Notes under the pieces: model-generated
Told to the model about the DNA's origin: nothing
Seen by the model: only the letters and a program-made list of their open reading frames with translations
The model's database searches: none
Position numbers and translations under genes: made by a program
Assembly (NCBI GenBank): GCA_965248925.1
Contig: CBDFLE010000006.1
Span: forward strand, 1,824,001-1,888,000
DNA: 64,000 nt
Source of the DNA: Candidatus Multivoradales bacterium
GTDB taxonomy: Bacteria > Acidobacteriota > Thermoanaerobaculia > Multivoradales > J023
Direction of reading: 5' to 3'
Shown: positions 1,880 through 26,278 of the stretch, in pieces
Layout of the letters: each line of letters starts with the position of its first letter
Position numbering within the stretch: position 1 is the stretch's first letter

Positions 1880-6058
<4,179 letters not shown>

Positions 6059-6139
6059 GGGTGACCTCCTTATGGCCTGCCTCAGACCGTGTAGTGCTCG
6101 ATTGCGGGGCTGCGCTGCTCGATTCTCGCGCTCCGCGTA

Positions 6140-9100
6140 TCAGGTCTTCAGCAGTTCGACATCCAGACAAAGGCTCTGTAGTTCACGGACTAGCACATTA
6201 AACGACTCGGGCAGACCGGGCTCGTCCGGCACCTCGCCCTTGACGATCGACTCATAGACTCGGCTGCGGCCTTCGACATCGTCGCTCTTGACCGTCAGCA
6301 GCTCTTGCAAGGTGTAGGCGGCGCCGTAGGCCTGCATTGCCCAGACCTCCATCTCGCCGAACCGCTGGCCACCGAATTGGGCCTTACCACCCAACGGCTG
6401 CTGGGTGATCAGCGAGTAGGGGCCGATCGAGCGAGCGTGGATCTTGTCGTCCACCAGATGGGACAGTTTCAGCATGTAAATGTAGCCGACGGTGACCTTC
6501 TGCTCAAACTGCACTCCGGTCATGCCGTCAAAAAGGGTGGTCTTGCCCGAGGGCGGCAGGTTTGCCTCCGCCATGTACCTCTTCATGTCGGCTTCGCTGG
6601 CACCGTCGAAGACCGCCGTGGCAAATTTCAAGCCGAGAACCTGCCCAGCCCAACCGAGGTGGGTTTCGAGGATCTGGCCAACATTCATCCGACTTGGCAC
6701 GCCGAGCGGATTGAGCACGATCTCGACCGGCGTCCCGTCCGGCATGTAGGGCATGTCCTCCTCGGGCAGAACCCGCGAGATAACACCCTTGTTGCCGTGC
6801 CGACCCGCCATCTTGTCGCCCACCTGCAGCTTGCGCTTCATGGCGACGAAGACCTTGACCAACTTGATGACTCCCGGCGGCAGTTCGTCGCCCTTCTGCA
6901 TCAGTTGCACCCGCTCCTCGTTCACCCGGTGGATGACATCGATCTGCGAGTCGGTCTTGCGGTAGATCTTCTCGACCACTTCAAGGATCTGCGAATCGCG
7001 CACTGGCAGGCGCAGGACCTCTTGCCGAATTAGCCGATCGAGAACTTCGTGATTGACCGCCCCACCCTTCTCGAGCAAGGTTTCGCCATCACGCGCTTTG
7101 ACCTCAGCGGTAACTTTCTGGCCGTCCAGCAGGTCACGGATCTTCTTATTGCGCTCTTCGGTGAGAATCCGCGCCTCGTCCTTGATGTTCTTCTGCAGAC
7201 GAGCGATCTCTTCCTCGTCGATCTCCCGCGCCCGGGCGTCCTTCTCGACCCCCTTGCGGGAAAACACCTTGACATCGACCACCGTACCCTCGATGCCGGG
7301 GGGCACTTTCAGGCTAGCATCGCGCACATCGCCGGCCTTCTCGCCAAAGATCGCCCGCAGCAACTTCTCCTCCGGCGTCAGCTGGGTCTCGCCCTTGGGA
7401 GTGACCTTGCCTACTAGGATGTCGCCTGAACGAACATGGGCGCCAAGGCGCACGATGCCACTTTCGTCGAGATCCTTGAGTGCCGCTTCTGAGACATTGG
7501 GAATATCGCGGGTGACTTCTTCCGGCCCGAGCTTGGTGTCGCGAGCCTCGATCTCGAACTCTTCGATGTGAATCGAAGTGTAGTAGTCCTCTTTGACCAA
7601 CTTCTCGGACACCAGAATGGCGTCCTCGAAGTTGTAACCGCGCCAGGCCATGAATGCCACCAAGACGTTGCGTCCTAAGGCCAGCTCGCCATCCTCGGTA
7701 CACGGCCCGTCGGCCAGCACATGCCCCTTGGCGACCCGCATCCCCTCTTCGACCACCGGCTTCTGGCTGATGCAGGTGTTCTGGTTGGAACGGCGGAACT
7801 TGGTCAGGGTGTAAATGTCGGCACCGAAGTCTTCCTGCTCCCCGGTCTGCCGATTCTCGCCTTCGACCCGGACGATGATGCGCTCGGCATCTACCGAGTC
7901 AACCACTCCAGCGCGCCGCGCCGAGACCACGGCTCCTGAATCGCGAGCGACCGTTCCTTCGAGCCCAGTGCCGACGATTGGCGAATCGCTGCGCAGCAGA
8001 GGCACCGCCTGACGTTGCATGTTGGATCCCATCAAGGCGCGGTTGGCATCGTCGTGCTCGAGGAAGGGAATCAACGCCGCCGCCACCGACACCAACTGCT
8101 TGGGGTTGATATCCATGTACTCGACCCGATCCCGCTCGATGGTGATGAAGTCGCCACCGGCGCGAGCGATAACCCGCTCTTGGGAGAAGCTGCCGTCGGC
8201 TTCGACCTGAGTGTTGGCCTGGGCGATAACGTACTTCTCTTCCTCCCAAGCTGTGAGGTAGAAAGCGAAGGGATCGGCATCGACCAGCAGTTTCTTGGCT
8301 TTCTTGAGCCCTGCGTTCACCTTGGCAAACTCGTCGCCGGTGGTGATCTCGCCGAGCTTATAGGGACCTTCGCCGACTTTGGTGACCCGGAAGTGGTCGA
8401 GCACCCGTCCCTTCTCCACTTTCCTATAAGGGCTCTCGATGAAGCCGTAGTCATTGATCCTAGCGTAGGTCGCCAGCGACGAAATCAAGCCGATGTTCGG
8501 CCCTTCAGGGGTCTCGATCGGGCAGATTCGGCCGTAGTGGGAAGCGTGGACGTCGCGAACTTCGAAACCAGCCCGCTCCCGTGACAGACCGCCTGGGCCG
8601 AGGGCCGACAGGCGTCGCTTGTGAGTGACCTCGGACAGCGGATTGGTCTGGTCCATGAATTGCGACAACTGCGACGAACCAAAGAACTCCTTGATCGCGG
8701 CAATCACCGGCTTGGAGTTGATCAGGTCATGGGGCATCGCCGAGTCGATGTCTTGATGCACCGACATCTTCTCTTTGATCGCCCGCTCCATGCGCACCAA
8801 GCCAATGCGGAACTGGTTCTCCAACAGCTCGCCTACCGCCCGCACCCGGCGATTGCCGAGATTGTCGATGTCGTCGACCCGGCCGATGTCCTTGTGCAGA
8901 CGCATCAGATAGCCGATGACCCGATAGAAGTCATCCGCCGACAGGGTCTTTTGCTCCACCGGCACTTCGGTGTCGAGTTTGATATTGAACTTGAACCGGC
9001 CAACGCGGGAGAAGTCATAGCGCTTGGCATCGAAGAACATGCCGTAGAACAATGATCGCGCGCTCTCCAGCGTCGGAGGATCTCCAGGCCGCATGCGGCG

Positions 9101-22190: not shown

Positions 22191-22804
22191 AACGGCTACT
22201 AGTCGGCCTGACCGGCGGCATGGCGAGCGGCAAATCAACCGTCGCCCAGTTACTCCGCGAGCACGGTTGCCAGGTCTTCGATGCCGACCGGCTAGTGGCC
22301 GAGCTCTACGCCCCCGACGAAGCCGGCGCCGCTGCGGTGGCCAAGCTATTCGGCTCTGACTTCTTGGATGCCGCGGGAGCGGTCGACAAACCTCGTCTCG
22401 CCAAGCTGATCTTTGCCGACAGCGAGGCCCGGCAGCAGCTCGAGGCGGCGGTCCACCCCTTGGTACGCCAACGCTTCGCCAAGATCGCCGCCGAAGCCAC
22501 TGGGGTAGTAGTCTACGAAGCCACCCTGCTGGTCGAGTCCGGCGCCGCCGCCAACTTCGACCTGGTGCTCTCCGTCGAAGCCGAAGCAGCCACCCGCCTA
22601 CGCCGCGCCATCGCCCGCGGCCTCGACCCAGCCGCCGCCCGCGCCCGCCTCAGCGCACAGGGCGACGGTAGCGAGCGCCGCGCGGGCGCGGACCTACTGC
22701 TGCAAAACAACGGGGGCATGGAAGAGTTGCGCGAGAAAGTCGCGGCGCTGGCCGCCGAGTGGTGGGGAAAAATCGATCCGCAAAACCGGGTGCCAGCCGA
22801 ATAG
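22187..22804 (+). CDS. coaE: Dephospho-CoA kinase
   Basis: TTG start overlapping folD stop; VGLTGGMASGKSTV P-loop, DAD, LEAAVHPLVR. Confidence 0.93.
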   Translation: MKRLLVGLTGGMASGKSTVAQLLREHGCQVFDADRLVAELYAPDEAGAAAVAKLFGSDFLDAAGAVDKPRLAKLIFADSEARQQLEAAVHPLVRQRFAKIAAEATGVVVYEATLLVESGAAANFDLVLSVEAEAATRLRRAIARGLDPAAARARLSAQGDGSERRAGADLLLQNNGGMEELREKVAALAAEWWGKIDPQNRVPAE

Positions 22805-22825
22805 TCCACCAGCCATCGAAGAGCC

Positions 22826-22903
22826 GTAGGGGCGCAAGGCTTGCGCCCGCGGTTCATTTTCAACGCGGTGAATCGTAGAGGGCGCACAGCCGTGCGCCCC
22901 TAC
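22826..22903. repeat. Inverted pair of GTAG-type REP-like palindromes (REPIN/BIME-like)
   Basis: GTAGGGGCGCAAGGCTTGCGCCC (22826-22848) and inverted GGGCGCACAGCCGTGCGCCCCTAC (22880-22903) between convergent genes. Confidence 0.75.
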
Positions 22904-22961
22904 ATCAAGGCGGGGCGCCAGCCGAACAACCCGCTCCCAAATAACCGGCGCGTCCCGCGCC

Positions 22962-25253
22962 TCAACCCTCCGGAGGGCGCTCCGCACCCACGGGCTCCGC
23001 CCGTCTGGATGCCGGCTCCGCCGGCCCTGGCGCAGGACCTAGAGCAAGGCGGAAGCCCAAGTAGTCGAAGCGGCCCGACGGGTGCCTGCAGTAGCGGCAA
23101 GCCGCACGCACGTCGCGTGCGCCGCTGCTCCACGCACCCCCGCGGATGACCCGGAAGGCGCCTTCGGAAGGTGATGAATAGTCGGGTCGCCAACGATCGT
23201 GGCACCACTCCCACACGTTGCCCAACATGTCATGCAAGCCCCAGGCGTTGGGTCGTTTCTGAGCAACAGGATGAGTCTCGCGAGAACTATTGTGCCGGTA
23301 CCAGGCGATCACATCGAGTTCTGGCGACTTACCCTGGGCATCAGCCGTGAAGGTTCCTTCATAGGTCGCCGTCGTGGTACCCGCTCGGCAAGCGTATTCC
23401 CACTCTGCCTCGGCAGGTAGACGAACGTCCAACTCTGGCGCGGCCTCGTTCACGGCCGCCAAGAAACTCTGGCAATCGTTCCAGCTCACGCGTTCGACTG
23501 GCCGATTCTTGCCCTTGAATTGACTCGGATTTGCCCCGCTCACAGCCTGCCAAAACGCTTGGGTTGTCGGTGTTTCAGCCAACCAGAAACCTCTCTTCAG
23601 AGTAACTTCGTGCTGGGGACCATCCTGGGCAAAGTGCCCCGGCTCTTCTTCCGGCGACCCCATCAGAAAAGTCCCCGGCTCGATCCAGCGAAATCGAACC
23701 TTCACCTGAGCGAAGCTGACCGTCTCCCAGCGGCCGTAGATATCTTGCCCAGAATCAACCACTCGAACCTTGAGTGAGCCAAGCCGCACAGCAAAGGAGA
23801 CCCGAGGCTGGAGACTCGGGGCCGGCTTCGTCGGCACTGTCTCCAGGGCCGGTTGCTCTTGGGCATGGCGCAAAGCAGCGCAGAACTCCTCGACTGTCGA
23901 ATAGCGTTGACCAGGATCAAATAGGGTGCCGCGCTTGAGAACCTGCTTGAGAGCCTCCGAGCAAGTGAGGGGGGCTATCACCGTGGCGGTAGCGTTGATT
24001 GCCGAGTGCGGCACCTGCTGGCCGCGAAGGGCGAAAATCGCCGTCATCGCCAGCGAGTACACATCTGCCGAAGCCTCGACGCGCTTGGCATCGATCAACG
24101 ATTCGGGAGCCGCATAGACGAAGGTGCCCATGGCTGCCTCAGTGCGAGTGTTGCCGGTGCTATCTCCACTCACTTTCACCAGGTCGAAATCGGTGAGTTT
24201 TCCCCTGCCATCGCCGTCGAACACAATGTTGGCAGGCTTGACATCGCGATGGACAATACCCCGAGCGTGAGCGTGCGTCAGCGCGTTGCCAACACTCAGG
24301 ATCACTTTCAAAGCCGCGGCCTCGGACCAGCGACCCCGTAGCCGGGCGTGTAGAAAATCGCCGCCTTCGAAATACTCCATCACGAAGTAATGAAAGCCCT
24401 CATCCTGGGCCTCGGACACGAGCACTCGCACGATCCCCGGATGCTCGCCCAAACGCACCATCTCCCGAGCGCCGCAGAAGAATCGGCGGCGGCGGCTCTC
24501 GTCGCGGGCGAACTGACCATGGAGCACCTTCACCGCGACCACTTGGCGCGTCTTGCGATGGCGGGCCCGCCAGACGGTGGCAAATCCACCCTGCCCGACC
24601 GGCACCTTCAACCGGTAGACACCGCCGAGGAGATCTCCAGGGCGCAGCTGAGCGCCCTCGCGCAAACGTCGCTTCAGCCGCCGGATGGTGCGCTCGACCG
24701 CTCCTGCTGGGCCGCCGGATTCGAGCAGAGCTTCGAGTTCTTCTTCAGCCTTCTCCAGCTGCCGCGAAAGCTTGAGGTGCTCCGGGGTCGGCGGCTCCAT
24801 CCCGGTCGAACCAATGAACTTCGGTAAGAGATCCGGATGTCGATCGCGCAGCAGCGCCACAAGGTTCCCCAGAGCCCAGGTCGAACCGATCTCAAGCGCC
24901 CCCTCGGCGCGGCGGCGTAGCTGGCACTCAGTCTCAGTGGAGATGTTGCAGGTGGCCGCCAAGCGGTAGACCTGCGCTGGCGAATCGCCAGGGTCTTGGA
25001 AGACTTCCTCAAGTGCTGCGAGAGCGGGTGTGGGGCCGAACTGCCGCACCCGCTTGCACTGAACCACCCACCGACGGCCATCAGGACCCACGCTGGCGAG
25101 ATCGACCCCGTGGTCAGCACCCGCGGCACCGGGGTTCGACACCGCGGTGTGACCTTCGGCTTCGAGCAAGGCGAAACACAGTTCCTCGAAGCGCTCGGGC
25201 GCGAGGCCCTCTCGCAAACGGTACTTGATCCAATCGTCGTTCGGTCCCGGCAT
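22962..25253 (-). CDS. Mrr-type restriction endonuclease + Ser/Thr kinase + FGE-sulfatase (SUMF1/CLec-fold) fusion protein; putative DGR target
   Basis: N-term RFEELC..DHGVD..VVQCK (Mrr-like PD-(D/E)xK); kinase GQGGFATV/VAVK/HRDVKPAN/DFD/YAAPE; C-term PVERVSW, RLPAEAEWEYACRAG, PNAWGLHDMLGNVWEW, RGGAW..LGFRL; start MPGP at 25253 after GGAAGG. Confidence 0.9.
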   Translation of the reverse strand: MPGPNDDWIKYRLREGLAPERFEELCFALLEAEGHTAVSNPGAAGADHGVDLASVGPDGRRWVVQCKRVRQFGPTPALAALEEVFQDPGDSPAQVYRLAATCNISTETECQLRRRAEGALEIGSTWALGNLVALLRDRHPDLLPKFIGSTGMEPPTPEHLKLSRQLEKAEEELEALLESGGPAGAVERTIRRLKRRLREGAQLRPGDLLGGVYRLKVPVGQGGFATVWRARHRKTRQVVAVKVLHGQFARDESRRRRFFCGAREMVRLGEHPGIVRVLVSEAQDEGFHYFVMEYFEGGDFLHARLRGRWSEAAALKVILSVGNALTHAHARGIVHRDVKPANIVFDGDGRGKLTDFDLVKVSGDSTGNTRTEAAMGTFVYAAPESLIDAKRVEASADVYSLAMTAIFALRGQQVPHSAINATATVIAPLTCSEALKQVLKRGTLFDPGQRYSTVEEFCAALRHAQEQPALETVPTKPAPSLQPRVSFAVRLGSLKVRVVDSGQDIYGRWETVSFAQVKVRFRWIEPGTFLMGSPEEEPGHFAQDGPQHEVTLKRGFWLAETPTTQAFWQAVSGANPSQFKGKNRPVERVSWNDCQSFLAAVNEAAPELDVRLPAEAEWEYACRAGTTTATYEGTFTADAQGKSPELDVIAWYRHNSSRETHPVAQKRPNAWGLHDMLGNVWEWCHDRWRPDYSSPSEGAFRVIRGGAWSSGARDVRAACRYCRHPSGRFDYLGFRLALGPAPGPAEPASRRAEPVGAERPPEG
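22975..23025 (-). other. Three tandem GC-GGA-GC triloop hairpins (DGR cis-element-like)
   Basis: GCCGGC-GGA-GCCGGC, ACGGGC-GGA-GCCCGT, GGGTGC-GGA-GCGCCC about 20 nt after the GFRL codons. Confidence 0.75.
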
Positions 25254-25548
25254 CCTTCCCAACCTTGGAGCGAAGGATAACAGCCGGCGATAGAACGCCA
25301 AGTAACGTGCCAGCCGAAGAGTGCGGCGGATTCGATGCCCCCGGAATCTAGGTGCTACCGAACTAGGTGCCAACCGCGCACGCCCTCACATCAGGAACCA
25401 CCATCCGCGGTCACGGTTCCCCAGAGCAGATGGACCACAAGCTGCGGCTGGCTGGTTCCTGGCTCTTCTTTCTTCCGCGGGCTATGCTGATGGCACACCG
25501 GCCAATTAGTCGTCGTTCTGGACGGCGACCGGGCCAAGGAGATGCCCC

Positions 25549-25800
25549 ATGACTGTTGTGCAAGTGAAATTCGACACCGACGTGTTTTCGACCCTGCGCA
25601 AGTCTCCGCAGGAGGTTTCTGACGACATGCGTCGCGCAGCTGCAATCGTGTGGTACGCCCAGGGCACTATTTCCCAAGGAAAGGGGGCAGAACTTGCTGG
25701 GCTGAGCCGAGCGGAGTTCATTGATGCGCTCTCGGCTAGTGGCGTGTCGCCGGTTCAAGAGACCCTCGAAGAGATCCGGGAAACGCTCGCGCGTGAGTAA
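25549..25800 (+). CDS. UPF0175-family putative antitoxin
   Basis: 83 aa; AIVWYAQGTISQGKGAELAGLSRAEFIDAL helix-turn-helix signature; overlaps next gene. Confidence 0.85.
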   Translation: MTVVQVKFDTDVFSTLRKSPQEVSDDMRRAAAIVWYAQGTISQGKGAELAGLSRAEFIDALSASGVSPVQETLEEIRETLARE

Positions 25801-26278
25801 GTCCTTCGTCGTCAACGCTTCTCCCTTGATCCTGTTCTCGCGAATCGGTCGGCTGGACCTCTTGGTGGCCCTGGCGGACACCCTTGAGGTCCCGGCGGCG
25901 GTGATGGCTGAGCTTCAAGCTGGCGCCCACCATGACGACGCCGCTGAGGTTGTGCGGGGAGTCTCAGCGATTCGCATCGTACCGGACCTCGAAGTAGCCG
26001 AGGAAGTGAAGGCTTGGAGGCTTGGACCCGGAGAGTCTCAGGTTCTATCCCACGCCCTGCGATCTGGCGAAAACGAAGCGGTCTTGGACGATCGCGCAGC
26101 CAGGAGATGCGCCCAATCCCTAGGTATTGCGCTGATCGGTACCCTCGGAGTAGTGATCAAGTGTCGGCATCTGGGCCTCATCCCAGCGGCCCGACCGATA
26201 GTAGAGAGCTTGAGCAAAGCCGGAATCCGTTTAGTGCCTGCTCTGCTCGACGCAGCACTAGAAGAAGTGGGGGAGTGA
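25793..26278 (+). CDS. DUF3368-family PIN-like protein (putative toxin)
   Basis: VVNASPLI, LGPGESQVL, LDDRAARRCA, GTLGVV, ends EVGE. Confidence 0.88.
   Translation: MSKSFVVNASPLILFSRIGRLDLLVALADTLEVPAAVMAELQAGAHHDDAAEVVRGVSAIRIVPDLEVAEEVKAWRLGPGESQVLSHALRSGENEAVLDDRAARRCAQSLGIALIGTLGVVIKCRHLGLIPAARPIVESLSKAGIRLVPALLDAALEEVGE

Follow-up and report, generated by a model that had tools for sequence, protein, structure and literature searches.

A lectin-fold domain in a putative nuclease-kinase receptor of a Multivoradales bacterium as a probable remote target of a chromosomal diversity-generating retroelement

Remote targets of diversity-generating retroelements (DGRs), and targets that combine a kinase with a C-type-lectin (CLec) fold, are already published. 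The remote CLec-kinase targets described for cyanobacteria carry a C-terminal CLec/FGE domain with the variable repeat (VR) near the 3′ end of the gene and a kinase at the N-terminus, and they lie far from the reverse transcriptase (RT), to which they are linked by homology between the VR and the template repeat (TR) (Vallota-Eastman et al., 2020, PMC7517822). A role as putative antigen sensors in conflict systems has also been ascribed to FGS/CLec targets; in these systems, several DGRs occur per genome, the targets are built of an effector, a signalling module, and an FGS domain, and diversification in trans has been inferred from a perfect match at non-adenine (non-A) sites (Kaur et al., 2020, PMC7159879, and 2021, PMC8195603; Doré et al., 2024, PMC10907252). 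The TvpA DGR of Treponema denticola, described as an HRDC-type element of "Architecture C" with multiple remote targets, pairs an FGE-type CLec fold with an HRDC accessory gene and reaches targets at distances above 100 kb (Wu et al., 2018, PMC5758913).

The window analyzed here is a stretch of 64,000 nucleotides from a Candidatus Multivoradales bacterium of the class Thermoanaerobaculia (Acidobacteriota), whose genome assembly amounts to 7.98 Mb with 62% GC and a completeness of 96.9%. One gene of the window (Table 1) shares with the cyanobacterial targets the C-terminal lectin fold with a VR near the 3′ end, the kinase ahead of it, and the distance from the RT; with the conflict systems the order of effector, signalling module, and FGS domain, the presence of several DGRs in the genome, and the perfect non-A match; and with the TvpA system the FGE-type fold, the HRDC accessory gene, and a separation of more than 100 kb. 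What is new in this case is the host and the layout of the protein. Unlike the cyanobacterial targets, the gene resides in a member of Thermoanaerobaculia and encodes an extra Mrr-like nuclease domain at the N-terminus, and its VR agrees with the TR at every non-A site, compared with the identity threshold of at least 50% applied by Vallota-Eastman et al. (2020, PMC7517822). In contrast to the sensors of conflict systems as they are described, its center is a protein kinase instead of a STAND/NACHT NTPase or a vWA domain, its effector is an Mrr-type nuclease, and its host is not known as multicellular. TvpA-type targets are lipoproteins, whereas the present protein contains nuclease and kinase domains and is apparently cytoplasmic, and the retroelement concerned, DGR-1, has one remote target only. 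A protein of the Mrr_cat-kinase-FGE type was not found under that description as a DGR target in the papers on DGR targets cited above, although the supplements of Doré et al. (2024), Wu et al. (2018), and Vallota-Eastman et al. (2020) may list one.

Table 1. Features of the remote target gene and its template (window positions, except for the template repeat, which is placed on its genome contig).
Feature	Position	Strand	Evidence
Target gene, 763 aa (ATG at 25253, stop 22962-22964)	22962..25253	-	ORF list, translation
Mrr_cat (restriction-endonuclease-like), N-terminal, putative effector	24996..25205	-	PF04471, E 2.4e-7
Ser/Thr protein kinase domain	23937..24617	-	Pfam PF00069 (Pkinase), E 1.2e-36
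FGE-sulfatase/C-type-lectin-fold domain, VR at C-terminal end	23043..23687	-	PF03781, E 1.4e-42
Variable repeat VRw, 126 nt	23039-23164	-	Ungapped TR/VR comparison, codon table
Tandem GC-stem/GGA-triloop hairpins	22975..23025	-	DNA fold, genome-wide scans
Hairpin 1, 6-bp stem	23011-23025	-	DNA fold
Hairpin 2, 6-bp stem	22990-23004	-	DNA fold
Hairpin 3, imperfect, one G-T	22975-22989	-	DNA fold
Template repeat TR, 126 nt	G000:C6:1660772-1660897		Whole-genome search

The variable repeat of this gene, VRw, ends 75 nt before the stop codon, inside PF03781, and its TR is found on the same strand of the same contig, at a distance of 186,142 bp. VRw is substituted relative to the TR at window positions 23156, 23155, 23128, 23125, 23123, 23122, 23114, 23098, 23093, 23089, 23075, 23074, 23069, 23068, and 23063. 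All 15 of these mismatches fall on TR adenines, while none of the 98 non-A positions differs in the ungapped comparison over 126 nt; since the TR contains 28 adenines in 126 nt, the chance of placing 15/15 at adenines is (28/126)^15, or about 1.6e-10. The two VRs within the DGR-1 cassette are marked in the same manner, with 17/17 differences (VR1) and 11/11 differences (VR2) on TR adenines and none at non-A positions across 126 nt each, which brings the pooled count for the three VRs to 43/43. The whole-genome search yielded no second TR matching VRw. The TRs of DGR-2 and DGR-3 were considered as donors and rejected, being only 62–66% alike to the VRw/TR family and carrying non-A mismatches. 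We consider it very probable (about 0.9) that 23039–23164 is a bona fide VR of the chromosomal DGR-1, homed in trans, and that it likely belongs to a hypermutable sensor that gates a nuclease.

The TR is arranged so that mutation changes the protein. Its adenines occupy codon position 1 in 11 cases, position 2 in 13 cases, and a synonymous third position in two, nine of its codons are AAC, and no stop codon can be reached by adenine mutation. The template-encoded pattern reads W N N N A R N V R A A Y R N Y R H P S N R N D N L G F R, in which up to 15 codons are re-codable, giving about 1.2e14 protein variants. A first-pass annotation made from the window alone had proposed that a DGR located elsewhere in the genome diversifies this gene in trans as a remote target, a proposal supported by the TR with adenine-only mismatches 186 kb away, and the template pattern it had given (W-N-N-N-A-R-N...) closely resembles the actual one. 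It had placed the repeat correctly but set its boundaries at 23035–23160, slightly off the true ones. The 23 codons that it quoted between TGG (W) and TTG GGC TTC CGC (LGFR) are all present as written on the minus strand, and the 12 that it marked as variable all correspond to TR codons with an adenine at position 1 or 2; behind the marked codons stand nine AAC and two TAC, with CAC and GAC among the codons listed. Three further variable codons had escaped it, namely an AAC that became TTC (23155–23156) and the template codons ATC and AGG, both of which are unchanged in the VRw copy.

The template search across the whole genome, which had been suggested at the first pass, led to a single TR beside an RVT_1 RT and an HRDC ORF. 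The DGR-1 cassette extends over about 1,659.7–1,667.6 kb of the contig (G000:C6) and comprises, in order, a trypsin-like peptidase, an AAA_5 ATPase, a 908-aa FGE target (VR1), the HRDC ORF, the RT, the TR, and a 301-aa FGE target (VR2). The RT has an intact frame (RVT_1, E 6.5e-17), is located 33 nt from the TR, and contains the motifs YMDD and IGALTSQ; the SQ motif is specific to DGR RTs. The HRDC ORF (domain E 9.5e-20), also with an intact frame, lies directly upstream of the RT. A search of the genome (96.9% complete) for Avd (PF05635) was negative, which suggests that the accessory requirement differs from that of the studied BPP-1 model. The cassette agrees with the text description of "clade 5A" loci, in which a MoxR-like ATPase lies upstream of a long target and both a trypsin-like peptidase and a short target consisting of CLec only are close by. 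Adenine-biased TR/VR pairs were present at 25 of 44 related RT loci, and TR searches for remote VRs in two genomes of the same family (G001, G011) gave local VRs only. An Rfam scan of the cassette produced a single match of no meaning (E 0.32; 17 bits, where the gathering score is 48).

The target protein started at the ATG is identical to the 763-aa entry P0002 of the protein collection, and the open frame reaches further upstream to a TTG at 25373. The domains read into it at the first pass, a restriction-endonuclease-like domain, a kinase, and a CLec/FGE fold, are matched by Pfam, and the order Mrr_cat, Pkinase, FGE-sulfatase corresponds to a layout of effector, signalling module, and FGS domain. 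Mrr_cat scores 31.3 bits (cut-off, 21), and its D...QCK residues are invariant in 5/5 aligned homologs; D-QxK is the catalytic motif of Mrr. The same invariance (5/5) holds for the kinase lysine of VAVK, HRDVKPAN, DFD (a DFG variant), and APE. The best solved-structure match of the FGE domain, by PDB sequence match, is TvpA of Treponema denticola (2Y3C, E 4.9e-26), and the C-terminal variable stretch of TvpA aligns to VRw. No membrane domain was recognized in the target protein. The nuclease, kinase, and ligand-binding activities are predicted from motifs.

The 3′ flank of VRw carries a further putative mark of a DGR target. In phage DGRs, a single hairpin with a 7–10 bp stem and a 4-nt GRNA loop is found 4–34 bp from the VR (Guo et al., 2011, PMC3240598). 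The hairpin/cruciform of the BPP-1 target site has in common with the targets of DGR-1 that GC-rich inverted repeats occur just 3′ of the VR and are absent from the TR, and that the stem sequence varies with pairing kept while the loop is constant (Guo et al., 2011, PMC3240598). Unlike the phage hairpins, those of DGR-1 come as two to four tandem copies with 4–7 bp stems and a GGA triloop, and they start 13–20 nt after the VR, inside the coding tail. The array of VRw begins 13 nt past the VR end, in the tail encoding ...PAEPASRRAEPVGAERPPEG before the stop. Among the 312 GGA-loop hairpins with a stem of at least 4 bp in the 7.98-Mb genome, the only three clusters coincide with the regions directly 3′ of the three VRs, compared with about 0.3 clusters expected by chance, and neither DNA folding nor the scan detected an array at the TR. 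The same hairpins follow 7/8 VRs and 0/3 TRs in three related cassettes (two same-family genomes). Among related public loci with a TR/VR pair, the 11 ranked best show them after 10/20 VRs and at 0/25 TR flanks. Their exclusive placement at VRs suggests a role in target recognition. Directly past the TR/VR homology, the VRs read GT and the TR reads CG, the only IMH/IMH* difference seen and a candidate element.

How VRw came to match the TR can be judged from its flanks. Over 240 nt upstream, the identity is 65% to the VR1 gene and 52% to the VR2 gene, and over 110 nt downstream it is 70% and 57%, respectively, whereas the non-A positions of the VR are 100% identical, with the jump from the flank level located exactly at the TR boundaries. 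The FGE scaffold of the target shares a protein identity of 55% with the local target and of 58–62% with foreign kinase-FGE proteins, indicating that the gene is not a recent duplicate. Exact non-A identity set against such low flank identity points to cDNA retrohoming in trans. An origin of VRw without any retroelement, through GC-rich codon usage combined with ordinary paralogy of FGE-domain genes or conversion among them, could appeal to the 62% GC of the genome, to its approximately 13 FGE-domain genes, and to the variable codons having been picked post hoc. It is nevertheless extremely improbable, and the confinement of all 15 differences to template adenines refutes it in practice; no TR corresponds to any of six other FGE genes of the genome, and the leap in identity from 65–70% in the flanks is again at odds with it. 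Codons ending in C make up 15/23 of the stretch quoted at the first pass and just 33% of the remaining gene (binomial P = 0.0016), a bias that is weak taken alone because the 12 capitalized codons had been chosen post hoc. GC bias as the cause of the NNC pattern was rejected on the 33% of C-ending codons elsewhere in the gene together with the exact TR match. It is somewhat easier to conceive, though still unlikely, that VRw is a relic, written by DGR-1 in the past and no longer diversified, with the site or the retroelement silent or the allele fixed by selection. A precedent exists in the remote VR of PB-PSB1 DGR 1, which matches its TR at all non-A sites and is described as showing no variation (Doré et al., 2024, PMC10907252). 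In the four sequencing runs holding the locus, all from one sample of one study and available as assembled contigs, a single contig per run spans 22400–24000 with 0 differences, so that one VRw allele is seen; this is weak evidence for a relic because contigs cannot show rare variants. The 98 non-A positions without mismatch, synonymous sites among them, speak against a relic, as do the retained hairpin array and the uninterrupted reading frames of the RT and the HRDC gene. Exact-pattern scans of the VR flanks in public metagenome contigs gave 0 matches to other alleles of the target gene. Extra contigs over 23036–23165, which carry 13 or 19 differences, match only that stretch, and diverge beyond it, stem from the genome itself and represent its TR, VR1, and VR2. 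A contig joint that steps back 127 nt corresponds to the stretch of 1049 nt that separates the TR from VR2.

The function of the protein is a separate matter. The same DGR might diversify a regulatory kinase, in which the variable lectin tunes the sensing of environmental or self ligands and the Mrr-like domain is a DNA-binding or inactive module. Cyanobacterial CLec-kinase remote targets have been interpreted as regulatory (Vallota-Eastman et al., 2020, PMC7517822), and the neighbors of the present gene are housekeeping genes (rpsB, rpsI, tsf, folD, coaE) and do not constitute a defense island; a DUF3368 ORF aside, no phage or defense genes were recognized in its vicinity. We regard this reading as doubtful, though not negligible. 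The D...QxK residues are conserved in 5/5 aligned sequences, and the homologs among the matches listed, which number at least 120, carry TIR, Mrr_cat, SIR2, CHAT, or caspase domains ahead of the kinase and FGE domains; of these, TIR, SIR2, CHAT, and caspase are classic effectors of death or immunity. In a genome of the same family, an Mrr module also heads an Mrr_cat-NACHT-FGE protein that is the local target of a DGR, and the kinase of the present target matches the defense-kinase models PD-T4-6 (E 1.6e-52) and mad6 (E 3e-47), matches that reflect generic kinase homology. Judged from its domain architecture, the target protein is most likely an intracellular hypermutable sensor, as in conflict or abortive-infection systems.

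For such a sensor, the following course can be proposed. The TR would be transcribed jointly with the RT, which would copy it into cDNA and misincorporate opposite adenines, a step whose footprint is seen in the TR/VR differences. The cDNA may then replace the VR wherever a matching VR 3′ end and downstream GGA-loop hairpins occur, the remote gene included, and up to 15 codons would be re-coded in the C-terminal lectin fold, on its ligand-binding face. Binding of a ligand by the lectin tip may be relayed via the kinase and release the N-terminal Mrr-type nuclease. A bolder combination, which we put forward tentatively and at less than even odds, is that the VR end and the GGA-hairpin array form a portable address tag and that the target is at the same time a kinase-gated Mrr suicide-nuclease immune receptor. 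If so, the tag would be common to a cross-phylum, HRDC-type, Avd-less DGR clade and would suffice for writing into any lectin-fold gene, wherever it lies in the chromosome, and the protein would be a hypermutable receptor in a single polypeptide, with a protein kinase taking the place of the STAND NTPase and a lectin tip that binds an invader molecule.

The GGA-loop hairpins would mark targets in the RT clade of DGR-1, a cis signal that is testable and that could serve the computational finding of remote targets and retargetable tools for in vivo mutagenesis. DGR-1 offers a clean natural case of homing in trans, in which one retroelement is associated with two local genes and with a third that lies 186 kb off among housekeeping genes, and its footprint is unusually sharp, with every change at an adenine and none elsewhere. 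With this locus, DGR-diversified putative antigen sensors would extend to a genome of Thermoanaerobaculia (Acidobacteriota) and to an Mrr-nuclease/kinase architecture.

Searching the window region against its own assembly (7.98 Mb, 6 contigs, 62% GC) returned three strong matches on the same contig and strand, about 186 kb away, which are the template repeat (TR) and the variable repeats (VR1 and VR2) of two local targets of the retroelement DGR-1. In ungapped comparison with TR, all 43 differences of VR1, VR2, and the window variable repeat (VRw), located at the 3' end of a 763-aa minus-strand target gene, fall on adenines, and none of the 98 non-A positions differs. The chance of the VRw pattern is (28/126)^15 ~ 1.6e-10 by simple arithmetic, and a relaxed BLAST of the 7.98-Mb assembly with the candidate template found no copies besides TR and the three VRs. 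The first-pass annotation had proposed that the gene is diversified in trans by a DGR elsewhere in the genome, and had named as a check the search for a template repeat differing almost only at adenines and lying beside an RT/Avd. The distant TR, the mismatches confined to its adenines, and the reverse transcriptase (RT) of the DGR-1 cassette support this proposal; Avd (PF05635) was not found in the whole genome (96.9% complete), and an HRDC-domain ORF is present instead.

Locations of the target gene, the repeats, and associated features (domain residues are numbered in the 803-aa frame; G000, the window's own assembly, with contigs C5 and C6; G016, a genome of the same family)
Feature	Location	Strand	Details
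Target gene	window 22962-25253	minus	763 aa counted from ATG; open frame up to 25373
Mrr_cat, restriction-endonuclease fold	residues 57-126		Pfam, E 2.4e-7, above cut-off
Pkinase	residues 253-479		Pfam, E 1.2e-36
FGE-sulfatase	residues 563-777		Pfam, E 1.4e-42
VRw	window 23039-23164	minus	15 differences from TR, 15 at TR adenines
VRw hairpins	window 23011-23025, 22990-23004, 22975-22989 (imperfect)		within coding tail (PAEPASRRAEPVGAERPPEG, then stop)
DUF3368-domain ORF	window 25721-26278	plus	E 3.2e-10; just upstream of target gene
Overlapping 156-aa ORF	window 25411-25881	minus	familyless; just upstream of target gene
DGR-1 cassette	L009 = C6:1654001-1670000	minus	8 parts
TR	G000:C6:1660772-1660897		126 nt: A28, C43, G37, T18
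VR1	C6:1662564-1662689		17 differences from TR, 17 at TR adenines
VR2	C6:1659745-1659870		11 differences from TR, 11 at TR adenines
Further DGR	C6 ~4,814-4,818 kb (G000:C6:4814005-4818002)		VR mismatches at A: 11/11, 16/16
Further DGR	C5 ~144-148 kb (G000:C5:144419-148406)		VR mismatches at A: 13/14, 10/11
G016 DGR locus	L082 = G016:C43:177000-191000; ORF 2972-6637		1221-aa Mrr_cat-NACHT-FGE, weak TIR_2 match

The translation of TR reads ...W N N N A R N V R A A Y R N Y R H P S N R N D N L G F R L A L, with nine AAC codons. Its adenines occupy codon positions 1, 2, and 3 in 11, 13, and 2 cases, both third-position adenines being synonymous, and no stop codon is reachable by adenine mutation; the 15 variable codons allow ~1.2e14 protein variants. 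The 23 codons quoted in the first-pass annotation between W and LGFR are all present, and 15 of them end in C versus 33% elsewhere in the gene (P = 0.0016), an excess that alone is suggestive of a DGR target but not decisive. The 12 codons singled out there are all true variable codons of TR, and three more (AAC>TTC at 23155-23156, ATC, and AGG) had been missed.

The DGR-1 cassette comprises, in order, a trypsin-like peptidase, an AAA_5 ATPase, a 908-aa protein that carries VR1 and whose sole Pfam domain is a C-terminal FGE-sulfatase-type (FGE) domain, the HRDC-domain ORF (E 9.5e-20), the RT (RVT_1, E 6.5e-17; probable start MTKRAL; motifs YMDD and IGALTSQ), TR, a 301-aa FGE-only protein carrying VR2, and a PIN-domain gene. 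The peptidase and ATPase lie upstream of the 908-aa target and the PIN-domain gene downstream (L009:11113-13643 and 4911-5372); the peptidase has weak similarity (E ~1e-10 to 1e-11) to the protease portions of three defence models, Avs1b, LmuA, and HamA, and the N-terminal ~640 aa of the 908-aa target matched no Pfam, NCBIfam, or PADLOC family. The layout fits 'clade 5A' loci as the text of Doré et al. 2024 (PMC10907252) describes them, in which a long target is preceded by a MoxR-like ATPase and accompanied by a short target with only the C-type-lectin (CLec) fold, with a trypsin-like peptidase close by; it also fits the HRDC-type 'Architecture C', assigned to 14 of 372 DGRs in the available text of Wu et al. 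2018 (PMC5758913). In the ~150 nt 3' of TR (L009:6640-6790, minus), the blocks CTGGTG.G... and GTAGGGC are conserved in four cassettes (L009, L020, L021, L022), and a hairpin shows compensatory changes among them, with 5 of 20 predicted pairs covarying. This element, compared in only four sequences and with no Rfam match, may be a TR-RNA 3' element for priming.

Paralogy could also make VRw resemble the DGR-1 repeats, and the flanks are moderately alike: the 240 nt upstream of the VR share 65% identity with the VR1 gene and 52% with the VR2 gene, and the 110 nt downstream 70% and 57%. Yet the non-A bases within the TR boundaries are 100% identical, synonymous sites included, and the jump coincides exactly with these boundaries, as predicted by VR replacement with TR-derived cDNA. 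Outside the VR, the FGE scaffold of the window gene shares 55% protein identity with the 908-aa target and 58-62% with kinase-FGE proteins of other organisms, so that the 908-aa target is no closer. On this sequence pattern, VRw is most likely a product of retrohoming and not of paralogy.

Two more DGRs occur in the genome, and each has a TR of its own and a pair of local VRs, all in FGE-domain targets; their RTs are 35-36% identical to that of DGR-1, and in one of them, DGR-3, a single long hairpin with a GGA or AGA loop stands after each VR. Neither of these TRs fits VRw, and six other FGE genes of the genome match no TR; therefore, the window gene is the sole remote target found and belongs to DGR-1.

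Past the shared ...GCTCTAG, the first bases are GT in the three VRs versus CG in TR. Starting 13-20 nt further on, two to four small hairpins, each with a GC stem and a GGA loop, stand in tandem after every DGR-1 VR, and none was found in the TR flank of DGR-1. At a stem of at least 4 bp, the genome holds 312 GGA-loop hairpins, and these form clusters (at least two within 45 nt) at just three places, exactly the flanks of VRw, VR1, and VR2; raising the minimum stem to 5 bp leaves 49 hairpins, with one cluster at VR1 and one at VRw. The same-family genomes G001 and G011 carry homologous cassettes with the DGR-1 layout (RT 50-56% identical), in which GGA hairpins lie 3' of 7 of the 8 VRs and of none of the 3 TRs. 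A related RT was present at 44 public loci, and an adenine-biased TR/VR pair at 25 of them. For the 11 ranked highest among the 25, which include Myxococcales, Gemmatimonadetes, Planctomycetota, Accumulibacter, and Multivoradales MAGs, 10 of 20 VRs have one or more perfect GGA hairpins downstream; the count is 1 of 14 VRs for the other 14 loci, and 0 of 25 for TR flanks. One place (L036, identical to G011:C12) is counted among both public loci and relatives. The stems vary among copies, with pairing and loop maintained, the same rule as that described for phage DGRs in the available text of Guo et al. 2011 (PMC3240598), where a single GRNA-loop hairpin occurs in contrast to the tandem GGA array here. 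By analogy, we infer that the array would be this RT clade's version of the target-recognition element. Two GC-rich hairpins unlike the GGA type, between coaE and the target gene (window 22820-22910; GGGGCGCA...TGCGCCC), may be REP-like elements or terminators.

The locus was present in four public runs, from one sample and as contigs only; VRw is crossed by one contig per run with no difference, and the remaining contigs over 23036-23165 correspond to TR, VR1, and VR2 of this same genome. Two exact-pattern scans of metagenome contigs for other alleles of the VRw gene found nothing. The lack of non-A drift, the intact RT and HRDC frames, and the retained hairpins speak in favour of a competent DGR-1.

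The 763-aa form of the target, with Mrr_cat, Pkinase, and FGE domains from N- to C-terminus, is already on record as an exact protein in the collection searched. The best solved relative of its FGE domain is TvpA, a DGR variable protein of Treponema denticola (2Y3C, E 4.9e-26), and the C-terminal variable stretches of the two align. The kinase motifs and the D...QCK of the Mrr-like domain, which we take to be catalytic residues, are invariant in 5/5 aligned homologues. In the best 120 homologues, the domains N-terminal to the kinase-FGE pair are TIR, SEFIR, Mrr_cat, SIR2, CHAT, caspase, or EAD-type, and P0017, from an Acidobacteriota MAG, shares the Mrr_cat-kinase-FGE order at 40% identity. 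A search of 41 genomes for the Mrr-like module alone found it N-terminal in large proteins of 18, one of them G000. Elsewhere in G000, a 503-aa open frame begins with a paralogue of the module (G000:C6:4544832-4545293; 51% identity over 157 aa). In G016, the Mrr_cat-NACHT-FGE protein is a local DGR target, and 13 of the 17 mismatches in its VR fall on template A, as do 13 of 14 in the second VR; the second local target there is a 775-aa NACHT-pentapeptide-FGE protein, and the cassette lies between ~680-nt direct repeats (L082, 839-1519 and 12326-12970; 93% identical), each in a ~335-aa ORF.

The window protein has the effector, switch, and FGE-sulfatase-type (FGS) grammar of the proteins presented, in the available text, as hypermutable intracellular antigen sensors (Kaur et al. 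2020, PMC7159879; 2021, PMC8195603; Doré et al. 2024, PMC10907252). On the best reading, its lectin tip would bind an invader-derived ligand, the kinase would act as the switch after binding, and the predicted Mrr nuclease would be the output. The rival reading, regulatory tuning, is the role proposed for cyanobacterial CLec-kinase remote targets in the portion consulted of Vallota-Eastman et al. 2020 (PMC7517822). The housekeeping neighbourhood does not discriminate between sensor-nuclease and regulator: rpsB, rpsI, tsf, folD, and coaE lie to one side of the gene, and the opposite side has the DUF3368 ORF and a D-serine-dehydratase-like gene. The DUF3368 ORF and the overlapping 156-aa ORF are possibly a small toxin-antitoxin-like pair.

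As far as the available text of these papers goes, ten DGRs are reported to have remote targets at distances above 100 kb, 29 genes in all (Wu et al. 2018, PMC5758913), remote kinase-CLec targets are known (Vallota-Eastman et al. 2020, PMC7517822), and trans diversification has been deduced before from perfect non-A matches (Doré et al. 2024, PMC10907252). The window target is thus a further case of a known type. What is new is the host lineage of the target, Thermoanaerobaculia within Acidobacteriota, its Mrr-nuclease/kinase architecture, and the clade-wide marking of VRs by a tandem array of GGA-triloop hairpins.
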